From NCBI RefSeq assembly GCF_053078305.1, contig NZ_CP166879.1: 64,000 nucleotides of DNA. One strand, written 5' to 3'. The position numbers and the translations under genes are program-made. Positions 26,405 to 64,000 of this stretch are shown piece by piece. Numbering within the stretch: position 1 is the first letter of the stretch; each line of letters starts with the position of its first letter. The notes beneath the pieces were generated by a model. The model was not told where the DNA came from, did no database searches, and saw nothing but the letters and a program-made list of their open reading frames with translations.

Positions 26405-26480
<76 letters not shown>

Positions 26481-26515
26481 TTGGGTGGTCTGTGCCTTAC
26501 AGCACTTTCAAATTT

Positions 26516-26591
<76 letters not shown>

Positions 26592-26627
26592 TTGGGTGGT
26601 CTGTGCTTTGCAGCACTTTTCAAATTT

Positions 26628-26703
<76 letters not shown>

Positions 26704-41649: not shown

Positions 41650-41696
41650 TTGGGGCCGTCCCCGGTGAAAAGAGGCGTTTGCAGGTCGTCCTGCAA
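41650..41696 (-). promoter_or_regulatory. guanidine-II riboswitch (mini-ykkC) in the gdx leader
   Basis: Minus strand has two GC-rich hairpins each capped by an ACGR tetraloop: gcagg-ACGA-cctgc (41681-41694) and gggg-ACGG-cccc (41652-41663), 16-nt linker, ending about 17 nt before the gdx ATG. Confidence 0.75.
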
Positions 41697-41763
41697 AGCT
41701 GATGGTTGAACGGATATTTTGCCAGGTGGCAGAGGAATTTCAACTATTACCTTTGTGACTATC

Positions 41764-49839: not shown

Positions 49840-50174
49840 AGGTTTCTCCTGTAATAGCAGCCGGTTAACCCGGCTACCTGAATGGGTTGCGAATCGCGTT
49901 CAGCTTATATTGTGGTCATTAGCAAAATTTCAAGATGTTTGCGCAACTATTTTTGGTAGTAATCCCAAAGCGGTGATCTATTTCACAAATTAATAATTAA
50001 GGGGTAAAAACCGACACTTAAAGTGATCCAGATTACGGTAGAAATCCTCAAGCAGCATATGATCTCGGGTATTCGGTCGATGCAGGGGATAATCGTCGGT
50101 CGAAAAACATTCGAAACCACATATATTCTGTGTGTTTAAAGCAAATCATTGGCAGCTTGAAAAAGAAGGTTCAC

Positions 50175-51611
50175 ATGTCAAACAACATTCGTATCGAAGA
50201 AGATCTGTTGGGTACCAGGGAAGTTCCAGCTGATGCCTACTATGGTGTTCACACTCTGAGAGCGATTGAAAACTTCTATATCAGCAACAACAAAATCAGT
50301 GATATTCCTGAATTTGTTCGCGGTATGGTAATGGTTAAAAAAGCCGCAGCTATGGCAAACAAAGAGCTGCAAACCATTCCTAAAAGTGTAGCGAATGCCA
50401 TCATTGCCGCATGTGATGAAGTCCTGAACAACGGAAAATGCATGGATCAGTTCCCGGTAGACGTCTACCAGGGCGGCGCAGGTACTTCCGTAAACATGAA
50501 CACCAACGAAGTGCTGGCCAATATCGGTCTGGAACTGATGGGTCACCAGAAAGGTGAATATCAGTACCTGAACCCGAACGACCATGTTAACAAATGTCAG
50601 TCCACTAACGACGCCTACCCGACCGGTTTCCGTATCGCAGTTTACTCTTCCCTGATTAAGCTGGTAGATGCGATTAACCAACTGCGTGAAGGCTTTGAAC
50701 GTAAAGCTGTCGAATTCCAGGACATCCTGAAAATGGGTCGTACCCAGCTGCAGGACGCAGTACCGATGACCCTCGGTCAGGAATTCCGCGCTTTCAGCAT
50801 CCTGCTGAAAGAAGAAGTGAAAAACATCCAACGTACCGCTGAACTGCTGCTGGAAGTTAACCTTGGCGCAACAGCAATCGGTACTGGTCTGAACACGCCG
50901 AAAGAGTACTCTCCGCTGGCAGTGAAAAAACTGGCTGAAGTTACTGGCTTCCCATGCGTACCGGCTGAAGACCTGATCGAAGCGACCTCTGACTGCGGCG
51001 CTTATGTTATGGTTCACGGCGCGCTGAAACGCCTGGCTGTGAAGATGTCCAAAATCTGTAACGACCTGCGCTTGCTCTCTTCTGGTCCACGTGCCGGCCT
51101 GAACGAGATCAACCTGCCGGAACTGCAGGCGGGCTCTTCCATCATGCCAGCTAAAGTAAACCCGGTTGTTCCGGAAGTGGTTAACCAGGTATGCTTCAAA
51201 GTCATCGGTAACGACACCACTGTTACCATGGCAGCAGAAGCAGGTCAGCTGCAGTTGAACGTTATGGAGCCGGTCATTGGCCAGGCCATGTTCGAATCCG
51301 TTCACATTCTGACCAACGCTTGCTACAACCTGCTGGAAAAATGCATTAACGGCATCACTGCTAACAAAGAAGTGTGCGAAGGTTACGTTTACAACTCTAT
51401 CGGTATCGTTACTTACCTGAACCCGTTCATCGGTCACCACAACGGTGACATCGTGGGTAAAATCTGTGCCGAAACCGGTAAGAGTGTACGTGAAGTCGTT
51501 CTGGAACGCGGTCTGTTGACTGAAGCGGAACTTGACGATATTTTCTCCGTACAGAATCTGATGCACCCGGCTTACAAAGCAAAACGCTATACTGATGAAA
51601 GCGAACAGTAA
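50175..51611 (+). CDS. aspA: aspartate ammonia-lyase
   Basis: Start ATG 50175 ([10 protein letters not shown]...) within ORF 50130..51611; 478 aa; fumarase/aspartase signature [10 protein letters not shown]. Confidence 0.96.
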
Positions 51612-51635
51612 TCGTACAGGGTAGTACAAATAAAA

Positions 51636-51666
51636 AAGGCACGTCAGATGACGTGCCTTTTTTCTT
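51636..51666 (+). terminator. rho-independent terminator downstream of aspA
   Basis: ggcacgtc-agat-gacgtgcc followed by TTTTTT. Confidence 0.8.
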
Positions 51667-51728
51667 GTGAGCAGTAACTTAAAAATAACAATCTAATATC
51701 AACTTGTTAAAAAACAAGGAAGGCTAAT

Positions 51729-53030
51729 ATGCTAGTTGTAGAACTCATCATAGTTTTGCTGGCGATCTTCTTGGGCGCCAGATTGGGGGGAATAGGTATT
51801 GGTTTTGCAGGCGGATTGGGGGTGCTGGTTCTTGCCGCTATTGGCGTTAAACCCGGTAACATCCCATTCGATGTCATTTCCATTATCATGGCGGTTATCG
51901 CCGCTATTTCTGCCATGCAGGTTGCTGGCGGTCTGGACTATCTGGTTCATCAGACAGAAAAGCTGCTGCGCCGTAACCCGAAATACATCACGATCCTCGC
52001 ACCGATCGTGACCTATTTCCTGACTATCTTTGCTGGTACTGGCAACATCTCTCTGGCGACACTGCCAGTTATCGCTGAAGTTGCGAAGGAACAAGGCGTT
52101 AAACCTTGCCGTCCGCTGTCTACTGCAGTGGTATCCGCGCAGATTGCGATCACCGCATCGCCAATCTCAGCGGCAGTGGTTTACATGTCTTCCGTGATGG
52201 AAGGTCATGGCATCAGCTACCTCCATCTGCTCTCCGTGGTCATCCCGTCCACCCTGCTGGCGGTTCTGGTGATGTCCTTCCTGGTCACTATGCTGTTCAA
52301 CTCCAAACTCTCTGACGATCCGATTTATCGCAAGCGTCTGGAAGAGGGCCTGGTTGAACTGCGCGGTGAAAAGCAGATTGAAATCAAATCCGGTGCAAAA
52401 ACGTCCGTCTGGCTGTTCCTGCTGGGCGTAGTTGGCGTGGTTATCTATGCAATCATCAACAGCCCAAGCATGGGTCTGGTTGAAAAACCGCTGATGAACA
52501 CCACCAACGCAATCCTGATCATCATGCTCAGCGTTGCAACTCTGACCACCGTTATCTGTAAAGTCGATACCGACAACATCCTCAACTCCAGCACCTTCAA
52601 AGCAGGTATGAGCGCCTGTATTTGTATCCTGGGTGTTGCGTGGCTGGGCGATACTTTCGTTTCCAACAACATCGACTGGATCAAAGATACCGCTGGTGAA
52701 GTGATTCAGGGTCATCCGTGGCTGCTGGCCGTCATCTTCTTCTTTGCTTCTGCTCTGCTGTACTCTCAGGCTGCAACCGCAAAAGCACTGATGCCGATGG
52801 CTCTGGCACTGAACGTTTCTCCGCTGACCGCTGTTGCTTCTTTCGCTGCGGTGTCTGGTCTGTTCATTCTGCCGACCTACCCGACGCTGGTTGCTGCGGT
52901 ACAGATGGATGACACGGGTACTACCCGTATCGGTAAATTCGTCTTCAACCATCCGTTCTTCATCCCGGGTACTCTGGGTGTTGCCCTGGCCGTTTGCTTC
53001 GGCTTCGTGCTGGGTAGCTTCATGCTGTAA
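51729..53030 (+). CDS. dcuA: anaerobic C4-dicarboxylate antiporter DcuA
   Basis: ORF 433 aa polytopic membrane protein; synteny with aspA. Confidence 0.95.
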   Translation: MLVVELIIVLLAIFLGARLGGIGIGFAGGLGVLVLAAIGVKPGNIPFDVISIIMAVIAAISAMQVAGGLDYLVHQTEKLLRRNPKYITILAPIVTYFLTIFAGTGNISLATLPVIAEVAKEQGVKPCRPLSTAVVSAQIAITASPISAAVVYMSSVMEGHGISYLHLLSVVIPSTLLAVLVMSFLVTMLFNSKLSDDPIYRKRLEEGLVELRGEKQIEIKSGAKTSVWLFLLGVVGVVIYAIINSPSMGLVEKPLMNTTNAILIIMLSVATLTTVICKVDTDNILNSSTFKAGMSACICILGVAWLGDTFVSNNIDWIKDTAGEVIQGHPWLLAVIFFFASALLYSQAATAKALMPMALALNVSPLTAVASFAAVSGLFILPTYPTLVAAVQMDDTGTTRIGKFVFNHPFFIPGTLGVALAVCFGFVLGSFML

Positions 53031-53145
53031 TGACCAATCGCGGGGCGTTCACGCCCCGCTTTCTTTCCCGCCGACTAACATCCTTCCCCCGTCCGTTGTA
53101 TAGTGACCTCTCTCTTGCGGTTCCATCTGTTCTTGCGAGGTGTTT

Positions 53146-53484
53146 ATGCTTGATGAAAAAAGTTCGAATACCGCGTCTGTCGTGGTGCTATGTACCGCAC
53201 CGGATGAAGCGACAGCCCAGGATTTAGCCGCCAAAGTGCTGGCGGAAAAACTGGCGGCCTGCGCGACCTTGATCCCCGGCGCTACCTCTCTCTATTACTG
53301 GGAAGGTAAGCTGGAGCAAGAATACGAAGTGCAGATGATTTTAAAAACTACCGTATCTCACCAGCAGGCACTGCTGGAATGCCTGAAGTCTCATCATCCA
53401 TATCAAACCCCGGAACTTCTGGTTTTACCTGTTACACACGGAGACACAGATTACCTCTCATGGCTCAACGCATCTTTACGCTGA
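53146..53484 (+). CDS. cutA: divalent-cation tolerance protein CutA
   Basis: Start ATG 53146 ([10 protein letters not shown]...); 112 aa. Confidence 0.9.
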
Positions 53485-55157
53485 TCCTGCTACTTTGCAG
53501 CACTTCCGTTTTTGCCGGATTATTCGACGCGCCGGGACGTTCACAATTTGTCCCCGCGGATCAAGCCTTTGCTTTTGATTTTCAGCAAAACCAACATGAC
53601 CTTAATCTGACCTGGCAGATCAAAGACGGTTACTACCTCTACCGTAAACAGATCCGCATTACGCCGGAACACGCGAAAATTGCCGACGTGCAGTTGCCGC
53701 AAGGCGTCTGGCATGAAGATGAGTTTTACGGCAAAAGCGAGATTTACCGCGATCGGCTGACGCTTCCCGTAACCATCAACCAGGCGAGTGCGGGAGCGAC
53801 GTTAACTGTCACCTACCAGGGCTGTGCTGATGCCGGTTTCTGTTATCCGCCAGAAACCAAAACCGTTCCGTTAAGCGAAGTGGTCGCCAACAACGCAGCG
53901 TCACAGCCTGTGTCTGTTCCGCAGCAAGAGCAGCACACCGCGCAATTGCCCTTTTCCGCGCTCTGGGCGTTGTTGATCGGTATTGGTATCGCCTTTACGC
54001 CATGCGTGCTGCCAATGTACCCACTGATTTCTGGCATCGTGCTGGGTGGTAAACAGCGGCTCTCCACTGCCAGAGCATTGTTGCTGACCTTTATTTATGT
54101 GCAGGGGATGGCTCTGACTTACACGGCGCTGGGTCTGGTAGTTGCCGCCGCAGGGTTACAGTTCCAGGCGGCGCTACAGCACCCATACGTGCTCATTGGC
54201 CTCGCCATCGTCTTTACCTTGCTGGCGATGTCAATGTTTGGCTTGTTTACTCTACAACTCCCCTCCTCGCTGCAAACGCGCCTCACGCTGATGAGCAATC
54301 GCCAACAGGGCGGCTCACCCGGCGGAGTGTTTATTATGGGGGCGATTGCCGGACTGATCTGTTCACCATGCACCACCGCACCGCTTAGCGCGATTCTGCT
54401 GTATATCGCCCAAAGCGGGAACATGTGGCTGGGCGGCGGCACGCTTTATCTCTATGCGTTGGGCATGGGCCTGCCGCTGATGCTAATTACCGTCTTTGGT
54501 AACCGCTTGCTGCCGAAAAGCGGCCCGTGGATGGAACAAGTCAAAACCGCGTTTGGTTTTGTGATCCTCGCACTGCCGGTCTTCCTGCTGGAGCGAGTGA
54601 TTGGTGATATATGGGGATTACGCTTGTGGTCGGCGCTGGGTGTCGCATTCTTTGGCTGGGCCTTTATCACCAGCCTACAGGCCAAACGCGGCTGGATGCG
54701 CGTGGTGCAAATAATCCTGCTTGCAGCGGCATTGGTTAGCGTGCGCCCACTTCAGGATTGGGCATTTGGTGCGACGCATACCGCGCAAACTCAGACGCAT
54801 CTCAACTTTACACAAATCAAAACGGTAGATGAGTTAAATCAGGCGCTCGTTGAAGCCAAAGGCAAACCGGTGATGTTAGATCTTTATGCCGACTGGTGCG
54901 TCGCCTGTAAAGAGTTTGAGAAATACACCTTCAGCGACCCGCAGGTGCAAAAAGCGTTAGCAGACACGGTCTTACTTCAGGCCAACGTCACGGCCAACGA
55001 CGCACAAGATGTGGCGCTGTTAAAGCATCTTAATGTCCTTGGCCTACCGACAATTCTCTTTTTTGACGGACAAGGCCAGGAGCATCCACAAGCACGCGTC
55101 ACGGGCTTTATGGATGCTGAAACCTTCAGCGCACATTTGCGCGATCGCCAACCGTGA
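53460..55157 (+). CDS. dsbD: thiol:disulfide interchange protein DsbD
   Basis: Start ATG 53460 ([10 protein letters not shown]...) overlapping cutA by 25 nt; 565 aa; C-terminal thioredoxin CVAC motif. Confidence 0.93.
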
Positions 55158-55193
55158 ACGACACTTGCAGTGGGAAAGACGGAGGAAAATAGC

Positions 55194-55769
55194 GTGCAAC
55201 GTGAAGATGTACTGGGAGAAGCCCTGAAATTATTAGAATTACAAGGGATTGCCAACACCACGCTGGAGATGGTTGCTGAACGTGTGGATTATCCACTGGA
55301 CGAGCTACGCCGCTTCTGGCCAGACAAAGAGGCAATCCTCTACGATGCGCTGCGTTATCTTAGCCAACAGATAGATATCTGGCGTCGTCAGCTGATGCTG
55401 GACGAAACGCAAACCGCCGAACAAAAGCTGCTGGCACGTTATCAGGCGTTATCGGAGTGCGTTAAAAACAACCGCTATCCGGGCTGTCTATTTATCGCTG
55501 CCTGTACGTTTTATCCCGATCCTGGCCACCCTATTCATCAACTGGCCGATCAGCAAAAAAGCGCGGCCTACGATTTCACCCACGAACTGTTAACCACGTT
55601 GGAAGTTGACGATCCGGCGATGGTAGCAAAGCAGATGGAACTGGTGCTGGAAGGCTGTTTAAGCCGAATGCTGGTAAATCGTAGCCAGGCGGATGTCGAC
55701 ACTGCACATCGGCTGGCGGAAGATATCCTGCGCTTCGCCCGCTGCCGCCAGGGTGGCGCATTGACCTGA
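55194..55769 (+). CDS. yjdC: TetR-family transcriptional regulator YjdC
   Basis: GTG 55194 within ORF 55170..55769; N-terminal TetR HTH. Confidence 0.85.
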
Positions 55770-55836
55770 CAGAAACACAGAAAAGAAGCGATTTGCCGCA
55801 ATCTTAAGCAGTTGAATCGCTTTTACTGAAATTAGG

Positions 55837-55865
55837 TTGACGAGATGTGCAGATTACGGTTTAAT
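55837..55865 (+). promoter_or_regulatory. sigma-70 promoter of tRNA-Phe (pheU)
   Basis: TTGACG (55837-55842) - 17 nt - TTTAAT (55860-55865), GC-rich discriminator gcgcc, 10 nt before the mature tRNA 5' end. Confidence 0.65.
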
Positions 55866-55875
55866 GCGCCCCGTT

Positions 55876-55951
55876 GCCCGGATAGCTCAGTCGGTAGAGC
55901 AGGGGATTGAAAATCCCCGTGTCGGTGGTTCGATTCCGCCTCCGGGCACCA
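55876..55951 (+). tRNA. pheU: tRNA-Phe (GAA) with variant T-stem
   Basis: GCCCGGATAGCTCAGTCGGTAGAGCAGGGGATTGAAAATCCCCGTGTCGGTGGTTCGATTCCGCCTCCGGGCACCA; identical to recalled E. coli tRNA-Phe except two compensatory base-pair changes in the T-stem (49-65 and 50-64). Confidence 0.95.
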
Positions 55952-56146
55952 TATACCAGAACACGCTGGTTAAGGGATGAGATCCTTGACGGGCGGTTAA
56001 TACAGGATGCGGCATCAAAGGGTCTCCGTTTGTGTAAGTTGTGGTTACACTGATTGAGTTCGGTATCGTATCCTCAAACAGGGTCTCTTTTGCAGAGACG
56101 CCCTGTTCTCGTTAACACTGTATGCTTACATTGCTGATTCAGCCTG

Positions 56147-57217
56147 TCAAGATTTATTCCCCCCTTTGCAAATCTTGCTCACTGTGCGCTCATCTGTATA
56201 CAAACTCAGGGCATCTTCCAGTGTCTGCGCTGCAGACTCCATACAGACATCAACATACCCCATGGTCGTTGTAAGACTCCTGTGTCCCAGTATGGATTTG
56301 ACCAGATGTAAATTACGTTCAGGATATTTCATCAGTCTGGTTGCCAGCGTATGTCTGAAACGATGTGGTGAAACAGGAAAACCACATTCTCGCGAAAGTC
56401 GCCGGAAAAATGAACGTACGGTCTGATGCGCCCGAACGGGACAGTACTGATATCTGTCGGCAGAGATCGGCTCACTGAAACGACAGACGTCAAAAAGATA
56501 GTCATCATCACCTGCCCCGCACTGACGGGCCCGCTCCAGCAGTTTTTCCATCGATACCTTCAGGGGAGCCACCAGAGGAACGCCCCATTCCCTGTGAGTT
56601 TTACTTCCCTCCAGCTTAAGATCAATTATGCTTTCATCCGGACAGACATCCCTCACACGGATATGCTTCAGTTGATTAAAGCGCATTCCGGTATAACGCA
56701 GAACATCCAGAACTGTCAGCCAGTACCAGGCAGGGTATATAGCATTGCGTCGACGACTATTCACCATGTTCTGCTCTTCCGCTTCTGCAAACCTCTGCAC
56801 AACCAGGTAAACCCTGAGCATCTGATTGTCACTCAGTGTCTTTTTCTTTTTTTCAGTACTCGCAACTGATGCTTCCACCAACGGGTTTTCTGTCTGAGGC
56901 AGCAGTTTCATCTTGATCCCGAATCCCATAATTGCCCGCAAGTGGGCCACCTTGTTATTCCAGGTCACCTCCCTGCGCTTCTGCTCTTTCAGGACATAAC
57001 GCCGGTATCGCTGAACATCACGGACAGTCACCTCCCCCGGCAAAATATCACCGATAAATTCCCTGAATACCCTGACAACTTTGCAGTAGCTCCACTCTGT
57101 ATCCGGCCGAAGATTCTTTGAAAAAAAGTACTCTTCCAGCAGTTGTTCCCAGGTGATTTTTGTGACGGAATCGTCATTCTGCATTATATATTCCCCTTGT
57201 TTACTGTGCTCCCGCAC
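56147..57217 (-). CDS. tyrosine-type site-specific recombinase (island integrase)
   Basis: ORF 356 aa; C-terminal catalytic residues visible (HRFRHT ... LGHRS ... MGYV with catalytic Tyr); transcribed toward the tRNA-Phe attachment site; possible alternative start at ATG 57184. Confidence 0.85.
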   Translation of the reverse strand: MREHSKQGEYIMQNDDSVTKITWEQLLEEYFFSKNLRPDTEWSYCKVVRVFREFIGDILPGEVTVRDVQRYRRYVLKEQKRREVTWNNKVAHLRAIMGFGIKMKLLPQTENPLVEASVASTEKKKKTLSDNQMLRVYLVVQRFAEAEEQNMVNSRRRNAIYPAWYWLTVLDVLRYTGMRFNQLKHIRVRDVCPDESIIDLKLEGSKTHREWGVPLVAPLKVSMEKLLERARQCGAGDDDYLFDVCRFSEPISADRYQYCPVRAHQTVRSFFRRLSRECGFPVSPHRFRHTLATRLMKYPERNLHLVKSILGHRSLTTTMGYVDVCMESAAQTLEDALSLYTDERTVSKICKGGNKS

Positions 57218-57251
57218 TCTCCGGTCAAATTCTGCACATCATCGCCTTTAC

Positions 57252-58739
57252 TCACCCGAAAACAATAAGCGGGCTGTCTCCGGGAACCGTAATATTCCCG
57301 TACAGAAACCTGCCCTTAACCAGATATCCCGAAACCATTTTGTAACGTCCGGAATGTTCTGCGTCACTATAAAGACGGGCCTGAAAAAAACGCTCTCCTG
57401 AACGTACCTTATGGATACCTGCCCGTTCAAAGAGCGACTGAACATAACGACGATCCTGCCCGGAACCACTCTCCTTCAGAAAACGATAAAAAATCCCCGG
57501 GGCACACAGAAAAACATATCCGGAAACAACATGAACATTTGAATCAACGCTGTTAACCGAAAGTGAACCCTCCCTCAGCCCCTCTTTTAACCATCTGATA
57601 AATTCACTCTCTACCCTGCTATCCTCTGTCAGGGAAAACTCTGCCGTTTTTTCCACTGTTTCCGGGATACGGTTTCCCTGATTTTCTGTTACACATCCGC
57701 TCTCTTCCGGTAACTCAATACCGCTTTCTTTATCCGGCGGCACGCCTGACGCTATCTGCCCTCCCTCATCCGACAAATCAGCAGCAGAAAACAGCGTAAG
57801 GAGCATTCCGGTATCAGCATCAGTTTCGTTCCCCTCATCCACCTCCTGTTCCGCTGTCCGGCCCTCATTTTCGGCATCCTCCACTGGCGACTGTACAACC
57901 GGCAACGGCTGAATGACGCTTTCTGCTGAAATTGCTGCTGACTGCAGCAGTACCGGAACAACCTCAGCCACCGGAACTTCGGCCACATCTCCTGCAGCGA
58001 GGGGACTCACGACTTCCTCCATAGCTTCCTGTAATACTGTACGTATCAGTGCCATTTCAGGATGCTGATGCCAGACTGCTCCGGCAAGATTCTGTAATGC
58101 CCCCGGGACAGTGGCAAGCCAGGCTCCCGCCTCTCCGGGCAGCAGTTGTCCCGCCATCAGGGCTGCCAGTTGCCGTCCCTCCGTTCCCTGGCAGGGCATC
58201 TTCCTGAACCGGAACCGGTATACGCCCTCAGGTACAGATATCCCCGGCTGCCAGCATCTGCCGTCGGCCTGTTCGCCTTCCAGTTCCGCCAGCAACGGCA
58301 GGTGATAAAACAGAGCCGACCAGAACACCACCATGTTCCACACACTCCCCTGCGCGGCCTGCTCTTCTGCTGTCGCTCCCGGTGGAAACATTCTGCCTCT
58401 GGCCAGCCGGACAGCATACGTCGTGAACTGCAGGGTCAGGTCACCAAAACCACCGGTGTAACCCCAGCGACCTTCTGCTGTGGCCGGCAGATTCTGACTG
58501 ACAGACAACAACTGATGCACAGGATCAAGACAAAGGCGCTGATACATATCCACCGGCATGGAACTGTTTTCCCATAACTGTTTCAGACACCTTTTCCTGA
58601 ACGGTGTGGATACCAGTACATCAGCCGGCAATGGTGTAAAATACCCCTCCGGCACCGTTTCCCCGGGAATATCCGTCCGGACATCAGAACATTCTGTCTT
58701 CACAGGAAATAACCTTTTCAGGCGTTCAAGCATGCCCAT
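57252..58739 (-). CDS. hypothetical 495-aa protein, translationally coupled partner of the SF1 helicase
   Basis: ORF 57252..58739; start overlaps helicase stop by 14 nt; N-domain and C-domain separated by an acidic low-complexity linker (about 57,630-57,900); no Walker A, HD or HNH motif recognisable by eye. Confidence 0.6.
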   Translation of the reverse strand: MGMLERLKRLFPVKTECSDVRTDIPGETVPEGYFTPLPADVLVSTPFRKRCLKQLWENSSMPVDMYQRLCLDPVHQLLSVSQNLPATAEGRWGYTGGFGDLTLQFTTYAVRLARGRMFPPGATAEEQAAQGSVWNMVVFWSALFYHLPLLAELEGEQADGRCWQPGISVPEGVYRFRFRKMPCQGTEGRQLAALMAGQLLPGEAGAWLATVPGALQNLAGAVWHQHPEMALIRTVLQEAMEEVVSPLAAGDVAEVPVAEVVPVLLQSAAISAESVIQPLPVVQSPVEDAENEGRTAEQEVDEGNETDADTGMLLTLFSAADLSDEGGQIASGVPPDKESGIELPEESGCVTENQGNRIPETVEKTAEFSLTEDSRVESEFIRWLKEGLREGSLSVNSVDSNVHVVSGYVFLCAPGIFYRFLKESGSGQDRRYVQSLFERAGIHKVRSGERFFQARLYSDAEHSGRYKMVSGYLVKGRFLYGNITVPGDSPLIVFG

Positions 58740-60276
58740 TCTCCTGAACCCGACCTGATGTGTCGTACCCGGTCCCCCGCAGACCTTCAGTTTTCTGCTG
58801 TTCTTCTGCCAGTTGGTGCATCAGGTCATTCAGTACCAGCGTCCTGAGGGCCCGGGTGACAGCCACATATAACAGACAGGTTTCATCATGACGCTCGGCC
58901 TCCGTCATCAGCGGAACCGTGATATCCTGGAAATCCTCATCCAGCATTACAACCGGCCACTCCAGCCCCTTGCTCCGGTGTGCCGTTGACACCGTGATAT
59001 CTGCATCCTGCTCATTCGTTACCGTATACTGCCGGAGAAGTTCCAGTTTTTTCGGTAACGGAAAACACAACTCCAGAAGCCGAAGGGACTGATTCATCTC
59101 CACATCCTTCGTGGATTTTGCAATATATTTATATTCTTCAAAATTCCTGTAGTCCCGGCGCAGCCTGTCTGAATGCATCCGTTCCGGCATATCAACCTGG
59201 AACCAGTAGAGATCCTCAAGTTCCCCGGTCCTGTAACCTTCGATTCCCCCCACCCAGTAAACCTTTTGCCCTTTCATTGCCGCCATCAGCGCAGTACCAA
59301 TCACACCCGCGACAGTACGACTGAGTACCGTGTAATGCCCCTGCAGATGTTCACGCGCATGGCATTTCAGCAATACCTCATCATCACCACCACAACCTTT
59401 CACCTCTCGTGTTTCACCTTCACGCTGCAGAAGCAGATTTGCCATACGAGCCACCGCCGGACCAAAACGGAAACTCTGTGTCAGCCACAACCGGTCCGCA
59501 TTCTTCAGTGCAGGATGGGAAAGCGCATTATTCGCACCCCGAAAGCGGTAAATCTGTTGATAACAATCTCCAACAAGGACCACCCGACACTTCTGCCCCA
59601 GAACCAGAGCAGTGGTCACCGGATTCGCATCCTGCGCCTCATCAAACAGGATGGTGTCCCATCGGTGAGACAGGTCTGCACCGGACAACTGGAAGAGTTT
59701 CAGATAAGTATCGTGCGTCACCGGGAACGTCCCCCCGGGGTTGCTCATTTCGTTCCAGAGCAACTGCACCGCCCGAAGCGCATCTGCTGGCGGAACACCC
59801 CGCATCTCATCCTTATCCGGCAGGTGATGCAGGCCCGGTACCGCATCAGCAGAACAGATAAAATGATTCAGCCCCGTCCCTGCCACCCGTGCCAGAGCCC
59901 AGTATCGTGTATTCAGCTTTCTCGCCACATCAGTAATACGTAATCCCGGAACCAGCCGATGACGGTAGTGTCTTCCAACCCGGGCATACGCCAGCTGATG
60001 TGACGTTCTGCATTCCACGTTAAAGGGAAATTTACGCTCTGCCTCATCACGTATTGCCCGGTTATAGGCAAGATAGAGCATACGGCTGTCCGGACTGGCC
60101 CGGGCAAACTGCACCAGCGTACTCGTCTTCCCTGTGCCGGAAAACGCATTCACAACCAGTTGCTGCCCCTGCCAGTTAATAATGGCGTACTGTTCATCTG
60201 TGGGATTAAAAGACATGTATTCTCTTCTCCGGAAAAACATTTCCGTAATCTGATGCATCAGGGGTATGCCCACCAC
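58726..60276 (-). CDS. superfamily-1 UvrD/PcrA-like DNA helicase
   Basis: ORF 516 aa; Walker A SGTGKT (about 60,124-60,141), motif II FDEAQD, motif IV QSFRF, motif V/VI TAHRSKGLEWPVV; true start may be an internal ATG (MSFNPTDEQ..., 60216). Confidence 0.85.
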   Translation of the reverse strand: MVGIPLMHQITEMFFRRREYMSFNPTDEQYAIINWQGQQLVVNAFSGTGKTSTLVQFARASPDSRMLYLAYNRAIRDEAERKFPFNVECRTSHQLAYARVGRHYRHRLVPGLRITDVARKLNTRYWALARVAGTGLNHFICSADAVPGLHHLPDKDEMRGVPPADALRAVQLLWNEMSNPGGTFPVTHDTYLKLFQLSGADLSHRWDTILFDEAQDANPVTTALVLGQKCRVVLVGDCYQQIYRFRGANNALSHPALKNADRLWLTQSFRFGPAVARMANLLLQREGETREVKGCGGDDEVLLKCHAREHLQGHYTVLSRTVAGVIGTALMAAMKGQKVYWVGGIEGYRTGELEDLYWFQVDMPERMHSDRLRRDYRNFEEYKYIAKSTKDVEMNQSLRLLELCFPLPKKLELLRQYTVTNEQDADITVSTAHRSKGLEWPVVMLDEDFQDITVPLMTEAERHDETCLLYVAVTRALRTLVLNDLMHQLAEEQQKTEGLRGTGYDTSGRVQENGHA

Positions 60277-60447
60277 AAATAACTCTGTACAGCAACAGAA
60301 AAATTTCCCTGGTCATATGATGAATTAATCATCGCCATCACACCGGATGCTTCTCATCCTGTCCTCAGAAAGACAGGTGGTCTCCTGTCTGCCGCGCTTA
60401 TCCAGGATACCGGGACCTGAAAGGTCATAATCTGGCAGGAAAAAATA

Positions 60448-62124
60448 ATGTCCGAAGTAAAAAAACACGTTTCTTATTCATTAACAGTTGCAGCTATGCT
60501 GTCAGCCGCCATCGTCTGTCAGACAGCACATGCTGATATCAACACACCGAACATCACCGGAGAAAAAAACAATACAACAACACGATTCTCCGGAAATATT
60601 TACGGCAGTGAAAATACTGTCACATCAGAGTCAAACAGTCTGGTTGTGGGTAACAGTAATTCCGTGGAGGGAGGGTATAACAACATTGTTATTGGTAATT
60701 CCTCCACGGTCAAAGCTTCCGGTTTGATCAGAAAAGTGGGCGAAGATATTGTGCTGGATGGTTACAGCGTCAGCCTCGGTAATGCCACCAGAATTAACGG
60801 TGATTCATCTGTTGCCATAGGTCTGACATCGTCCGTAACCGGGAACGACTCCGTGGCACTGGGCAGTCATTCCAGTGCTAACGGAAACAATATCGTATCC
60901 GTCGGCTCTGACACACTGAAACGCCGCATCACAAATCTGGCACAGGGGAAAGATGACCATGATGCGGTAAATCTGATGCAGATGACCAGTGCTGTTAACC
61001 GGGAAGCTGGAGAAAGAATAAAATCAACAAACAACCTGCAGAATCAGCTTAATACCCTCTCTGGTCAGGTCATAACTGAAACCAGGGCCCGAACAGAAGG
61101 TGATGCAGCAGCGCTGGCTGCAGCCAGAGCCCACAGCGATGAAAACGACAAAAGAACACTGGTCAGTGCGAATACCTATGCTGACCAGAAAGAAACCGCC
61201 ATCAATAACCGTACTGACGGATTACTGACGACCGAACGCCAGGCACGCACCGCAGGCGATACTGCAACTCTGGCTGCTGCCAGAACGCACAGCGATGAAA
61301 ACAACAAAAGAACACTGATCAGTGCGAATACCTATGCTGACCAGAAAGAAACCGCCATCAATAACCGTACTGACGGATTACTGGCTACAGAACGCCAGGC
61401 ACGCACCGCAGGCGATACTGCAACTCTGGCTGCTGCCAGAACGCACAGCGATGAAAACAACAAAAGAACACTGGTCAGTGCGAATACTTATGCTGACCAG
61501 AAAGAAACCGACATCAATAACCGTACTGACGGATTACTGGCTACAGAACGCCAGGCACGCACCGCAGGCGATACTGCAACTCTGGCTGCTGCCAGAACGC
61601 ACAGCGATGAAAACAACAAAAGAACACTGATCAGTGCGAATACCTATGCTGACCAGAAAGAAACCGCCATCAATAACCGTACTGACGGATTACTGACGAC
61701 CGAACGCCAGGCACGCATCGCAGGTGATGCCGCAACTCTGGCAACAGCAGCGGCATACAGTGACGCCGGGGATTCACTGACACTGAAACAGGCAACAGCC
61801 TACAGCGATATCAGTACCCGCCGGGCACTGTCAGAGGCCAATCGTTATACCGACAACAAATTCAGAAACCTGAGCAATAAAATTGAACGGGCAGAAAAAA
61901 GACTTAATGCAGGCATCGCCGGAGTGACAGCAATATCCTCCATCCCCTATGTGGCTGAAAATTCTTTTTCATACGGGATCGGCGTGGGTAACTATCAGAA
62001 CGCTAATGCTGTGGCCGCAGGCATTCAGTATAAAACATCACGTAATACCAATATACGCCTCAACATCTCCTGGGACTCATCTCATAACACCGCGATTGGT
62101 GCAGGGGTTGCCGGCGGCTGGTAA
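60448..62124 (+). CDS. YadA-like trimeric autotransporter adhesin (Eib/Saa-like architecture)
   Basis: ORF 558 aa; signal peptide, head with NSxxxG/SxxxG YadA-head repeats, neck, repeat-containing coiled-coil stalk, C-terminal YadA-type beta-barrel anchor ending ...AIGAGVAGGW. Confidence 0.85.
   Translation: MSEVKKHVSYSLTVAAMLSAAIVCQTAHADINTPNITGEKNNTTTRFSGNIYGSENTVTSESNSLVVGNSNSVEGGYNNIVIGNSSTVKASGLIRKVGEDIVLDGYSVSLGNATRINGDSSVAIGLTSSVTGNDSVALGSHSSANGNNIVSVGSDTLKRRITNLAQGKDDHDAVNLMQMTSAVNREAGERIKSTNNLQNQLNTLSGQVITETRARTEGDAAALAAARAHSDENDKRTLVSANTYADQKETAINNRTDGLLTTERQARTAGDTATLAAARTHSDENNKRTLISANTYADQKETAINNRTDGLLATERQARTAGDTATLAAARTHSDENNKRTLVSANTYADQKETDINNRTDGLLATERQARTAGDTATLAAARTHSDENNKRTLISANTYADQKETAINNRTDGLLTTERQARIAGDAATLATAAAYSDAGDSLTLKQATAYSDISTRRALSEANRYTDNKFRNLSNKIERAEKRLNAGIAGVTAISSIPYVAENSFSYGIGVGNYQNANAVAAGIQYKTSRNTNIRLNISWDSSHNTAIGAGVAGGW
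61087..61710 (+). repeat. four near-identical tandem 156-bp (52-aa) repeats within the adhesin stalk, plus a degenerate fifth copy
   Basis: Units begin at 61087, 61243, 61399, 61555 (each starting gca cgc acc gca ggc gat = ARTAGD); partial degenerate unit from 61711. Confidence 0.9.
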
Positions 62125-62269
62125 ATAATCTTGCGTACATACGGCATTATGGTATTCCATAATCACATTAATTCAGTACGCAACACAGCCCCATCCGGAA
62201 CAGACCACTGGACTGAGCGGGATAATCAAGGAAAAAGGGCGCGCAGTGAGGTCAGCCTTCACAACAATC

Positions 62270-62296
62270 CGGCGGCAGATTTCCTGCCGCCGTGTT
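62270..62296. terminator. GC-rich hairpin between convergent adhesin and toxin genes (candidate bidirectional terminator)
   Basis: ccggcggcag-atttc-ctgccgccg; no strong flanking T-run, so terminator function is uncertain. Confidence 0.45.
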
Positions 62297-62363
62297 GCCC
62301 GTTAACATTTAACTTCGTGGGCTGACGTTGCCACAAGCACCGTATTTCCCTGATTTATTCTGT

Positions 62364-62852
62364 TTATTTTATTGTGGATAATGATGCCAATGGCATGAAT
62401 AAAGTTCTTCCGGACTCCGGGAACGCCATAAAGCCATAATGTTTGTAAAATGCGACTGCCGTGTCATCTTTTGCATCAACAATAAGCGCATATGCTGCAA
62501 TTTCAGATGTGTATGCACGATATAGCGCATCAGCTAAAAGTGCTCCCCCAAGCCCCGTTCCTTTTGATGACAGACTTACTGCCAGTCGTCCCATACGAAT
62601 AGCCGGAATAGTGGGATATCGCGGAAGCTTTTTTCTCAAATGCTCAGGTAAGTCAGTTAATAATATACTGGCCGCTGATAACGTATAGTATCCGATGATA
62701 TGATGATCGTTATCTACAGCGACAAAACAGGCCGCGATGCGTCGTCGAATATCCTGTGTGACATGCTCTTTTATGTAACGGTCCAGAGCATCAGAGCCAC
62801 ATAAAAATGAGGTTCTGTCATATGTGCTGTTAAATGGTGTCAGTTGAAACAT
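62364..62852 (-). CDS. GNAT-family acetyltransferase toxin (TacT/AtaT/KacT-like)
   Basis: ORF 162 aa; acetyl-CoA-binding region with Gly-rich loop (TGLGGALLADA) and conserved Tyr; sits 5 nt downstream of a DUF1778 gene. Confidence 0.82.
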   Translation of the reverse strand: MFQLTPFNSTYDRTSFLCGSDALDRYIKEHVTQDIRRRIAACFVAVDNDHHIIGYYTLSAASILLTDLPEHLRKKLPRYPTIPAIRMGRLAVSLSSKGTGLGGALLADALYRAYTSEIAAYALIVDAKDDTAVAFYKHYGFMAFPESGRTLFMPLASLSTIK

Positions 62853-62857
62853 TATAT

Positions 62858-63139
62858 TTATTTTGTGTACAGCATATTATTACGGCGTTTAAAGGCCCGT
62901 TTAAGCGCATCATTCGGCTCTGTTGGTGACAGTAATGCCTGAGCAAAAATTTCCTGATCTGTCCGGGACAGTCGGATTATATCGGTTTGTTCGATAGCGC
63001 GTTGGGCCGCATCCTGAACGGCAGCAATGATAAAATCGGTCATAGTGCGCCCCTGGATTTCTGCAGCGCGCTTCAGCATGGCATGTAGTTCTGTGCTGAT
63101 CCTTGCTTCCAGTCGGGCAGTTTGTGTTGCAGATGGCAT
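62858..63139 (-). CDS. DUF1778 (RHH-like) antitoxin, TacA-like
   Basis: ORF 93 aa; N-terminal segment RLEARISTELHAMLKRAAEIQGRTMTDFI typical of DUF1778 antitoxins; upstream of the GNAT toxin. Confidence 0.8.
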   Translation of the reverse strand: MPSATQTARLEARISTELHAMLKRAAEIQGRTMTDFIIAAVQDAAQRAIEQTDIIRLSRTDQEIFAQALLSPTEPNDALKRAFKRRNNMLYTK

Positions 63140-63374
63140 GATTTGTACCTCCTGAATACACTGTACGGCAAATTGCCGTATTGTGCAAATTACACTCTGA
63201 CACCGGGACGGCAGACAGACATTCTGCCTGAAAAGAAAAATCAGATTCAGACAAAACTATCCGGGGGATGTTAACGCCACGATCTTTGACCATTGCATAC
63301 AGATAAAAGCTCAGATTATTTACCAGCAGTGACATCCGGAGTACACCGGGATTTTATCTGTGAGTGAACATACC

Positions 63375-63405
63375 CGGGCAAAAAAATCCCCCGAATTCAG
63401 GGGGG
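63375..63405 (-). terminator. rho-independent terminator downstream of the BON-domain gene
   Basis: Minus strand: ccccc-tgaattc-ggggg followed by atttttttg. Confidence 0.65.
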
Positions 63406-63556
63406 TGTCAAAGAGGAATTATGTATATTGGTTATTATAATGAGCACGCCTCCGGTATTCCGCGACGAATGTTCACGTGGTGGCATGAACGGCCCGGAAA
63501 CGTGCTCTTCTGATTTTTAACGTAAATTTACACTAAAGGCAACTCTGATACTGCCT

Positions 63557-64000
63557 TCACCGGATATAGGAGAAGGCCGTCGTGACCCGCTTCACTCCGC
63601 TCACCCTACTGGCAACATCTGCTGCCGCTCGCCCTTCCTGCTCTGTAACCAGGCCCAGTAAAAAGACTTCGCTGTTTTCTGTCACCACCTTGACACTGGA
63701 TGATTTGACACGGGCACTTGTGAGTAACTGAGAACGAATTTTTGTCGTAAGCCAGGCATCACCTGCCATTATGACCGGACTGACGGGTGTCCCCTGCCGG
63801 ATTTCATTATAGACCTCCTGAACACCATCGACACCGAGTGCTATCTGACGGGCACGGGCAGATAATTCACGGCCCGGAGACTGACCGATCAGCAGCACGC
63901 GTCCCTGATATGCAATCTCACTGATACGTGCTTCTTTTCTGATTTGTTCATCTTTTGAAAGTGCACTGCTGACCCTCAGCTCCAGCACTTCATCATCCAC
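63557..64000 (-). CDS. DolP/YraP-like dual-BON-domain lipoprotein paralog, C-terminal 147 aa (5' end outside window)
   Basis: Translation aligns by eye along its whole visible length with recalled E. coli DolP (YraP), e.g. LEVRVNSALSKDEQIKKEARI / GQSP..ELSARA / VKRVTTAF blocks, at roughly 60-70% identity. Confidence 0.8.
   Translation of the reverse strand: MDDEVLELRVSSALSKDEQIRKEARISEIAYQGRVLLIGQSPGRELSARARQIALGVDGVQEVYNEIRQGTPVSPVIMAGDAWLTTKIRSQLLTSARVKSSSVKVVTENSEVFLLGLVTEQEGRAAADVASRVSGVKRVTTAFSYIR

Follow-up and report, generated by a model that had tools for sequence, protein, structure and literature searches.

A chimeric tRNA-Phe gene at the left end of a probable integrative and conjugative element of the SPI-7/PAPI-1 family

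The DNA analysed here is a stretch of 64,000 nt from contig NZ_CP166879.1 of RefSeq assembly GCF_053078305.1 (the window), whose right end holds an island adjoining the tRNA-Phe gene pheU. Positions 55902-64000 are very probably the left, integrase-proximal end of an ICE (integrative and conjugative element) of the pKLC102/PAGI-2/SPI-7/PAPI-1 family, with ICEEc2 as its nearest named relative in Escherichia coli. An ICE of this kind would explain both the break in conserved gene order at pheU and the unusual T-stem of the tRNA. The element fits the family on every feature tested, the secretion genes, the parA module and the right-hand attachment site (attR) having been found in near-identical relatives. 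It is an element of a known kind, whose genes are already labelled as ICE proteins in the RefSeq annotation of its hosts, and no new mechanism is revealed; mildly notable are the chimeric tRNA, the replacement of a pilus operon by adhesin, toxin-antitoxin and DolP cargo, and the recurrence of envelope-protein paralogs. The coordinates of all features are collected in Table 1.

The left flank of the island, from 50000 to 55951, is core chromosome with the gene order aspA-dcuA-cutA-dsbD-dicD(yjdC)-pheU, and was matched at a coverage of at least 80% in 5422 of 5426 complete E. coli genomes, with identities of up to 99.8%. The genes next to pheU in K-12 are yjdQ and cadC, and none from the right part of the window is there. 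A preliminary description of this DNA, made from the letters alone, had judged the right-hand genes foreign to the K-12 pheU neighbourhood. That description also named the circumstance that would speak against an island, namely the presence of the same gene set at pheU in all E. coli including K-12; this is not the case, and the junction between pheU and the integrase gene is present in 15 of the 5426 genomes. Because it occurs in merely this number of genomes, the junction is not a chance pattern. The proposal of a horizontally acquired island at pheU was right; the gene set is rare and absent from the K-12 site. The further claim that synteny ends exactly at the tRNA was correct as to the aspA to pheU gene order, which is real, but not as to the boundary, as island-derived sequence begins within the tRNA, at 55924, and makes up its final 28 nt. 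G+C content was considered as an island signal and discarded, the island ranging from 0.43 to 0.60 per 500 nt and being indistinguishable from the core.

The composition of the tRNA gene follows from a comparison of attachment (att) site junctions. At the integrase side, the junctions in the window, in an identical contig (L004) and in two further loci (L001 and L002) all carry a complete tRNA gene, the last 50 nt of which are GGGGATTGAAAATCCCCGTGTCGGTGGTTCGATTCCGCCTCCGGGCACCA. At the far end, 12 of 12 junctions consist of the element flank ...CTCGCAACAC followed by GGGGATTGAAAATCCCCGTGTCCTTGGTTCGATTCCGAGTCCGGGCACCA, which is K-12 pheU sequence; a look-up of a relative's ParA yielded ten independent far-end junctions. 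An integrase gene and attL in the window, together with a matching 50-nt far repeat in all 12 of the related copies, provide the direct repeat expected of an element bounded by a tRNA gene. The element-type and K-12-type 50-mers differ at four positions (55924, 55925, 55939 and 55940), and these differences are compensatory, in that two T-stem pairs which are C-G and U-A in K-12 become G-C and G-C. They segregate uniformly, with the element type at the tRNA and the host type at the far end, and the 22 nt from 55902 to 55923, which comprise the anticodon stem-loop and the variable loop, are identical in both 50-mers. Because the four differences always segregate the same way, strand exchange must, to judge from these sequences, have occurred 5' of 55924, within 55902-55923. 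The tRNA is chimeric: its 5' part is that of the host, its T-arm and 3' end from 55924 come out of the attP of the element, and the edge of the island falls within the tRNA gene.

Exact, 3-mismatch and general repeat searches found no second copy of the tRNA 3' end in the window, in accord with the preliminary description, which had seen no direct repeat up to the end of the window and had placed the right boundary outside it; a distance of 76.5 kb or 120.8 kb separates the tRNA from the far att site in close relatives. The suggestion that attR be sought with the last 17-25 nt of the tRNA was right in that the repeat exists in relatives, but it is 50 nt long and there are 2 mismatches to the proposed query. 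The mismatches occur because attR retains the host T-stem and the tRNA bears that of the element. For annotation, the lesson is that the left boundary of such islands is inside the tRNA gene and that the far repeat may differ from the present 3' end of the tRNA. In two assemblies (L016 and L018), the sequence after the far copy is identical to the flank of the empty K-12 site, with cadC next; the insertion is precise, because this flank and cadC follow the far copy directly. The reconstructed attP, ACACGGGGA-TTGAAAA-TCCCCGTGT, contains a perfect 9-bp inverted repeat flanking the 7-nt anticodon loop, a palindrome that would have the shape expected of the core site of a simple tyrosine recombinase. 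In the integrase-side arm, just after the tRNA, there is a near-palindromic block (GGTTAAGGGATGAGATCCTTGACGGGCG, 55968-55995) that three divergent ICE lineages of E. coli share with relatives from Pluralibacter, Pantoea and Erwinia and that may be a candidate binding site for an accessory factor in the attP arm.

The source of the variant T-stem was sought by an exact scan for the element-type 50-mer with one genome per species, which returned at least 120 stretches, 80 loci of which were examined. The 50-mer is the ordinary tRNA-Phe 3' half of Marinobacter, Alcanivorax, Marinobacterium, Salinivibrio, Idiomarina, Xenorhabdus and others. Among the 80 loci listed, four (in Pluralibacter, Xenorhabdus mauleonii, Pantoea stewartii and Erwinia sp.) have Int homologs that adjoin the tRNA, are convergent with it and are 41-55% identical to the Int of the window; TraI is also present at the Pluralibacter and Xenorhabdus loci and the helicase at that of Pluralibacter, and Int stands alone at the short Pantoea and Erwinia loci. 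In X. mauleonii, a partial tRNA-Phe 3' half follows non-tRNA sequence on NZ_FORG01000072.1 (L077), and a second contig (L076) carries a full tRNA with Int and TraI. The two contigs look like both ends of a related ICE; the tRNA-Phe native to this host already has a T-stem of the element type.

Within E. coli, the variant T-arm was found in 73 of the 5426 complete genomes, at 80 places, versus 23 genomes (~0.4%) with the int-traI lineage of the window. This excess, and the fact that the variant is the native tRNA-Phe sequence of many other Gammaproteobacteria, would suit an ordinary allelic variant of E. coli pheU with no relation to the island. Yet the variant T-stem adjoins an ICE integrase at every junction examined in the lineages of the window and of avian pathogenic E. 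coli (APEC) E19035, it occurs at pheV as well as at pheU, and the displaced far-end copy is of the K-12 type at every junction. The excess itself is accounted for in part: APEC E19035 is one of the genomes concerned, and its integrase is too divergent for megablast. In many of the remaining genomes with the variant T-arm, similarity continues past the tRNA for some 130-160 nt. We regard an unrelated allele as very improbable; the chimeric tRNA is a footprint of the element and not an E. coli allele. The insertion has rewritten the T-stem to the allele native in Xenorhabdus and marine Gammaproteobacteria, which might slightly affect the function of the tRNA.

The integrase, relaxase and helicase genes that follow the tRNA form the three-gene DNA-mobility module of the family. 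The integrase gene is read in the direction of the tRNA, and 195 nt separate the stop codon of int from the tRNA end. This orientation had been called lambda-like; the direction of transcription was given correctly, but the likeness to lambda is a mere resemblance, the convergent layout being standard for this ICE family and present in three E. coli lineages as well as in the relatives from Pluralibacter, Xenorhabdus, Pantoea and Erwinia. The best NCBIfam matches of Int are Xer and integron integrases, with Xer scores that are all far under the curated cut-offs. PHROG_1 identifies it as an integrase, and Pfam detects PF00589 (Phage_integrase) together with a weak match to PF13495 (SAM_4 core-binding); no arm-binding domain was found in the Pfam scan. 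The catalytic motifs R168, K195, H274-x-x-R277, H301 and Y310 are readable in the translation. Int thus combines the catalytic R-K-H-x-x-R-H-Y set with a Xer-like core-binding domain and no N-terminal arm-binding domain, as do integrases of the IntKX type, the group to which the integrase of ICEEc2 belongs and a class of "simple" Xer-related recombinases (PMC8138268). Its provisional assignment to IntKX follows that publication and not a profile of the subgroup itself.

The protein encoded next to Int matches TIGR03760 ("integrating conjugative element relaxase, PFGI-1 class") at 210.5 bits against a cut-off of 161.4, the MobH model NF041494 at 99.6 bits, and Pfam TraI_2 and TraI_2_C, and is in these respects the MobH/TraI_2 relaxase of the pKLC102/PAGI-2/SPI-7 family. 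The third protein has the Pfam domains UvrD-helicase, UvrD_C and UvrD_C_2 and a match to PHROG_1967 DNA helicase (E = 6.6e-86), with partial matches only to the UvrD, PcrA and Rep family models. The preliminary description had listed a "helicase module", of which the UvrD-like helicase is indeed present, but the other gene of the module is the relaxase. Because the helicase gene and traI overlap by 8 nt, they are probably co-transcribed (hel-traI), with int next on the same strand. PADLOC returned GajB-like matches for the helicase; a defence function was rejected, as these reflect generic helicase motifs only, there is no GajA partner and the gene overlaps traI.

Since phe tRNA genes are classic sites of P4-type islands, and P4-type integrase islands lie just past the far att site in relatives, the stretch might be taken for a P4-type or lambda-type integrase island or prophage with no conjugation function, similar to LEE, SHI-2 or SE-PAI. 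The evidence makes this extremely improbable: Int is Xer-like and without an arm-binding domain, it reads toward the tRNA, as opposed to the P4-type integrases in relatives, which read away from theirs, and a relaxase scoring above its curated cut-off comes after it. The combination that marks P4-type islands, Arm-DNA-bind_3 and Phage_int_M in an integrase read away from the tRNA, was not found in the Int of the window. The PHROG matches are confined to integrase, helicase, acetyltransferase and adhesin-like tail entries; there is no phage structural module, and a prophage was rejected on this ground.

Assignment to a conjugative element draws further on related copies that can be read from end to end. 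A dozen complete genomes of E. coli contain the right 8 kb of the window with an identity of 98.8-99.1%. In OkiPb01692, the element at pheU spans 76,518 bp between corresponding repeat positions and carries the full "GI-type" set, comprising the TIGR03745-03759 proteins, a TraC-like ATPase, TraU, TraG_N and TraD, along with pilL2, topoisomerase III, ssb, an SPI-7-type dnaB, parB and parA. The same element is inserted at pheV in NCCP 13963. JNEC-KY171 has a longer element at pheU, with 120,844 bp between corresponding repeat positions, whose extra cargo includes ireA, a 1437-aa adhesin, tellurite resistance genes and a fabV cluster. The GI-type secretion genes and TraD, which are outside the window, are in this way found in relatives whose left 8 kb is ~99% identical, and so is a ParA(Soj)-DnaB-ParB module opposite the integrase end. 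In many ICE copies, a ter (tellurite) cluster and a fabV-thiolase-CoA transferase cluster lie between ireA and an L31 paralog/TraG_N (JNEC-KY171, locus L037, 18184-41260; loci L172-L181), and the exact FabV protein was found in 1068 blocks of the assembly collection.

Directly past the far att repeat, a P4-type integrase island is present in OkiPb01692 (locus L003, 1-1128) and in JNEC-KY171 (locus L038, 39990-47587), the latter being the subtilase cytotoxin (subAB) island. Where a P4-type island follows the far copy, the ICE entered a site that was already occupied. Because these islands lie just past the far repeat of the ICE, phe tRNA sites are seen to hold tandem arrays of unrelated islands.

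The continuation of the window's own copy can be followed on contig JPQG01000007.1 of draft assembly GCA_000736735.1, which is identical to the window over 13,553 of 13,553 nt. Over 35 kb to the right, this contig encodes DUF465, a type III restriction-modification system, DUF1281, ArdC, an Integrase_1-domain protein, LysE, ireA and a 1443-aa adhesin, a layout that fits the JNEC-KY171 type; no att repeat was found in the 35 kb right of the tRNA on this contig. About 70-115 kb of further foreign DNA is predicted right of the window. The same draft assembly contains a second copy of the ICE backbone near the start of the 1.42-Mb contig JPQG01000003.1 (locus L164, record positions 1362-21934), with ArdC, DUF1281, the Integrase_1-domain protein, a 190-aa protein and a two-partner-secretion ShlB/HlyC module. 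Because the assembly holds this second copy, the transfer region common to both was probably collapsed where the contigs end.

Several observations weigh against a complete ICE. The window does not include attR, the maintenance module or the genes for type IV secretion; the transfer region of close relatives is disrupted by IS600/IS66 insertions and contains at least one pseudogene; the lineage of the window is without the type IVB pilus operon of the APEC lineage; and this sequence analysis identified neither an excised form nor an oriT nor an excision factor. The copy in the window might accordingly be a decayed remnant that is not self-transmissible, or an element mobilised in trans, its secretion genes lost or broken. 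Mosaic, degraded versions do exist: Z1323MEC0001 keeps just backbone fragments among remnants of insertion sequences (IS), and in OkiPb01692 itself there are IS insertions, and one transfer gene is broken by an internal stop. The missing pil operon would fit decay as well, and the far end of the window's own copy would lie beyond the 35 kb of contig read. On the other hand, int, traI and the helicase gene are full-length and 100% identical in DNA to those of FHI_NMBU_10, and on the identical contig the backbone genes that come next are intact over 35 kb. The lineage is moreover inserted at both pheU and pheV, and several complete genomes hold two copies, one at each site, a distribution that argues for recent mobility. 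We judge decay or mobilisation in trans to be possible, but on the whole unlikely.

An ICE of the SPI-7/PAPI-1 family, the reading we prefer, also agrees with the relationships of the three-gene module. Three int-traI-helicase lineages occupy pheU in E. coli, those of the window, of NGF1/NC101 and of APEC E19035, and between any two of them Int is 60-71% identical, TraI 47-49% and the helicase 73-79% (64%, 47% and 79%, respectively, between APEC E19035 and the window). The tRNA of the NGF1/NC101 lineage keeps the K-12 T-stem. The divergent ICE of APEC E19035 adjoins the variant tRNA, and directly after its helicase gene comes an entire type IVB pilus operon that includes a shufflon. At the position of this operon the lineage of the window has the adhesin, TacAT and dolP genes, and further on just a PilI remnant and a decayed recombinase gene.

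Among named elements, ICEEc2 reportedly has three DNA-mobility genes and a pilus that is said to contribute to transfer; by analogy, these three genes would correspond to int-traI-helicase here and in E19035. ICEEc2 is described as a PAPI-like element at tRNA-Phe (pheU) of E. coli that can excise (PMC6761156), and pheU and pheV are recognised ICE hotspots (PMC11537424). It resembles the element of the window in being a pKLC102/PAGI-2 family ICE downstream of pheU, in using phe tRNA genes as targets and in having an integrase of the IntKX group. The pilus operon of APEC E19035 fits the published descriptions of ICEEc2 (PMC4458695), which is from avian pathogenic E. coli BEN374 (Roche et al. 2010, J Bacteriol 192:5026, as cited in PMC6761156, PMC4458695 and PMC11537424). 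The APEC lineage that best fits ICEEc2 has the type IVB pilus, whereas the window has the adhesin, TacAT and dolP genes, a comparison made by description.

SPI-7 (at pheU in S. Typhi), YAPI, CTnscr94, ICEKp2 and ICEPan share the tRNA-Phe target and a XerC-like integrase with TraI at one end (PMC4458695, PMC6761156). RefSeq names backbone genes of the relatives after SPI-7, among them dnaB-PI ("SPI-7-type island replicative DNA helicase") and the replication proteins STY4528 and STY4534, beside parA and parB. By description, the SPI-7 group differs in cargo, its Vi capsule and SopE phage not being in the element of the window. PAPI-1, pKLC102, PFGI-1 and ICEclc of Pseudomonas and ICEHin1056 share the PFGI-1-class MobH/TraI_2 relaxase and the TIGR037xx secretion genes. 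These elements insert at tRNA-Lys or tRNA-Gly, and the integrase of ICEclc is much larger and P4-related. ICEEc8, an 86-kb ICE at pheV of LEE-negative Shiga toxin-producing E. coli, lies between the two copies of a 52-bp direct repeat that corresponds to the 3' end of the tRNA, and resembles the element of the window in its hosts and in the themes of its cargo, which includes the adhesion/virulence genes iha and sigA (PMC6455142). Its repeat is reported to be perfect, whereas the two copies here differ at 4 positions, a comparison likewise by description (PMC6455142).

From the att sequences, the integrase would recombine a tRNA-Phe 3' half carried by the element (attP) with pheU or pheV, with strand exchange in the anticodon stem-loop. 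After insertion, the element's own 3' half would complete the tRNA and the host 3' half would be moved to the far end. By what is known of the family, the element would excise as a circle and TraI would nick oriT; the UvrD-like helicase would supply the unwinding activity that MobH relaxases lack, and a single strand would be exported by the type IV secretion system of the element and re-integrate at a phe tRNA gene of the recipient. A 2026 study reports that ICEs at pheU/pheV transfer and can drive Hfr-like transfer of chromosomal DNA (PMC13127887). ICEs of this family carry virulence, metal-resistance and restriction-modification genes between E. coli strains.

The adhesin, the TacAT pair and the DolP paralog are cargo. 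All of the genes that the preliminary description had listed right of pheU (integrase, adhesin, toxin-antitoxin pair and DolP paralog) are present. The YadA-like adhesin contains tandem repeats at 61114-61742, with a period of 156 nt (52 aa), 4.0 copies and 95% matches by Tandem Repeats Finder. Its repeat number varies between strains, because the adhesin of close relatives is 506 aa long, one repeat fewer than the 558 aa encoded here. The gene for the ribbon-helix-helix TacA protein is just upstream of the GNAT gene on the same strand, with a gap of 5 nt, which is the gene layout of TacAT type II systems, and RefSeq annotation of the relatives places the GNAT protein beside a TacA antitoxin; the pair is a TacAT toxin-antitoxin module with the GNAT protein as putative toxin. 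The dolP gene is cut by the window end and on the identical contig JPQG01000007.1 runs in full to 64132, encoding 191 aa. The product passes the DolP equivalog cut-off and is 74% identical to K-12 DolP, which is encoded elsewhere, in the lpoA-yraN-diaA-dolP cluster; the island gene is a true island-borne paralog.

In related ICE copies, BamE-domain and BamE-OmpA fusion proteins adjoin very large adhesins (locus L001, 26357-26695; locus L003, 49239-49547; locus L030, 17062-17835), and envelope-assembly paralogs recur among the cargo of these copies. We put forward, as speculation and with little confidence, that the cargo, rather than being assembled at random, may be an "outer-membrane toolkit" and, separately, that the rewritten T-stem is the trace of an earlier host of the element. 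The parts of such a toolkit could be DolP in the window and, in relatives, the BamE-domain and OmpA-like proteins and the large autotransporter and two-partner-secretion adhesins. If the idea is true, these diverged paralogs of envelope-assembly lipoproteins might help to assemble the surface proteins or the secretion machinery of the element in a new host.

Table 1. Features at the pheU end of the island (positions are those of the window)
Feature	Position	Strand	Basis or remark
tRNA-Phe(GAA), pheU, chimeric	55876-55951	+	ARAGORN; Rfam 69.1 bits
attL, 50-nt core repeat	55902-55951	+	junction comparison
Integrase-side arm of element, attP-derived	55952-56146	.	junction comparison
int, Xer-related "simple" tyrosine recombinase, 345 aa	56147-57184	-	alternative GTG start at 57217 possible
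traI, MobH-family relaxase, PFGI-1 class, 493 aa	57252-58733	-	TIGR03760, NF041494, Pfam
UvrD/Rep-like superfamily 1 helicase, 496 aa	58726-60216	-	Pfam, PHROG
YadA-like trimeric autotransporter adhesin, cargo, 558 aa	60448-62124	+	NF033478, YadA_anchor domain
GNAT acetyltransferase, predicted toxin (TacT-like), cargo, 162 aa	62364-62852	-	PHROG_1758 acetyltransferase
TacA-family ribbon-helix-helix antitoxin (predicted), cargo, 93 aa	62858-63139	-	Pfam TacA1, PF08681; RefSeq in relatives
dolP paralog, cargo, cut by window end	63557 to beyond 64000	-	NF008247, 222.7 bits vs cut-off 184

Two other RNA features lie in conserved core sequence of the window and are of the kind expected there. Three tandem tRNA-Gly(GCC) genes, glyVXY, occupy 26405-26703 on the minus strand and are ordinary, and a guanidine-II (mini-ykkC) riboswitch is located at 41651-41697, also on the minus strand, upstream of sugE.

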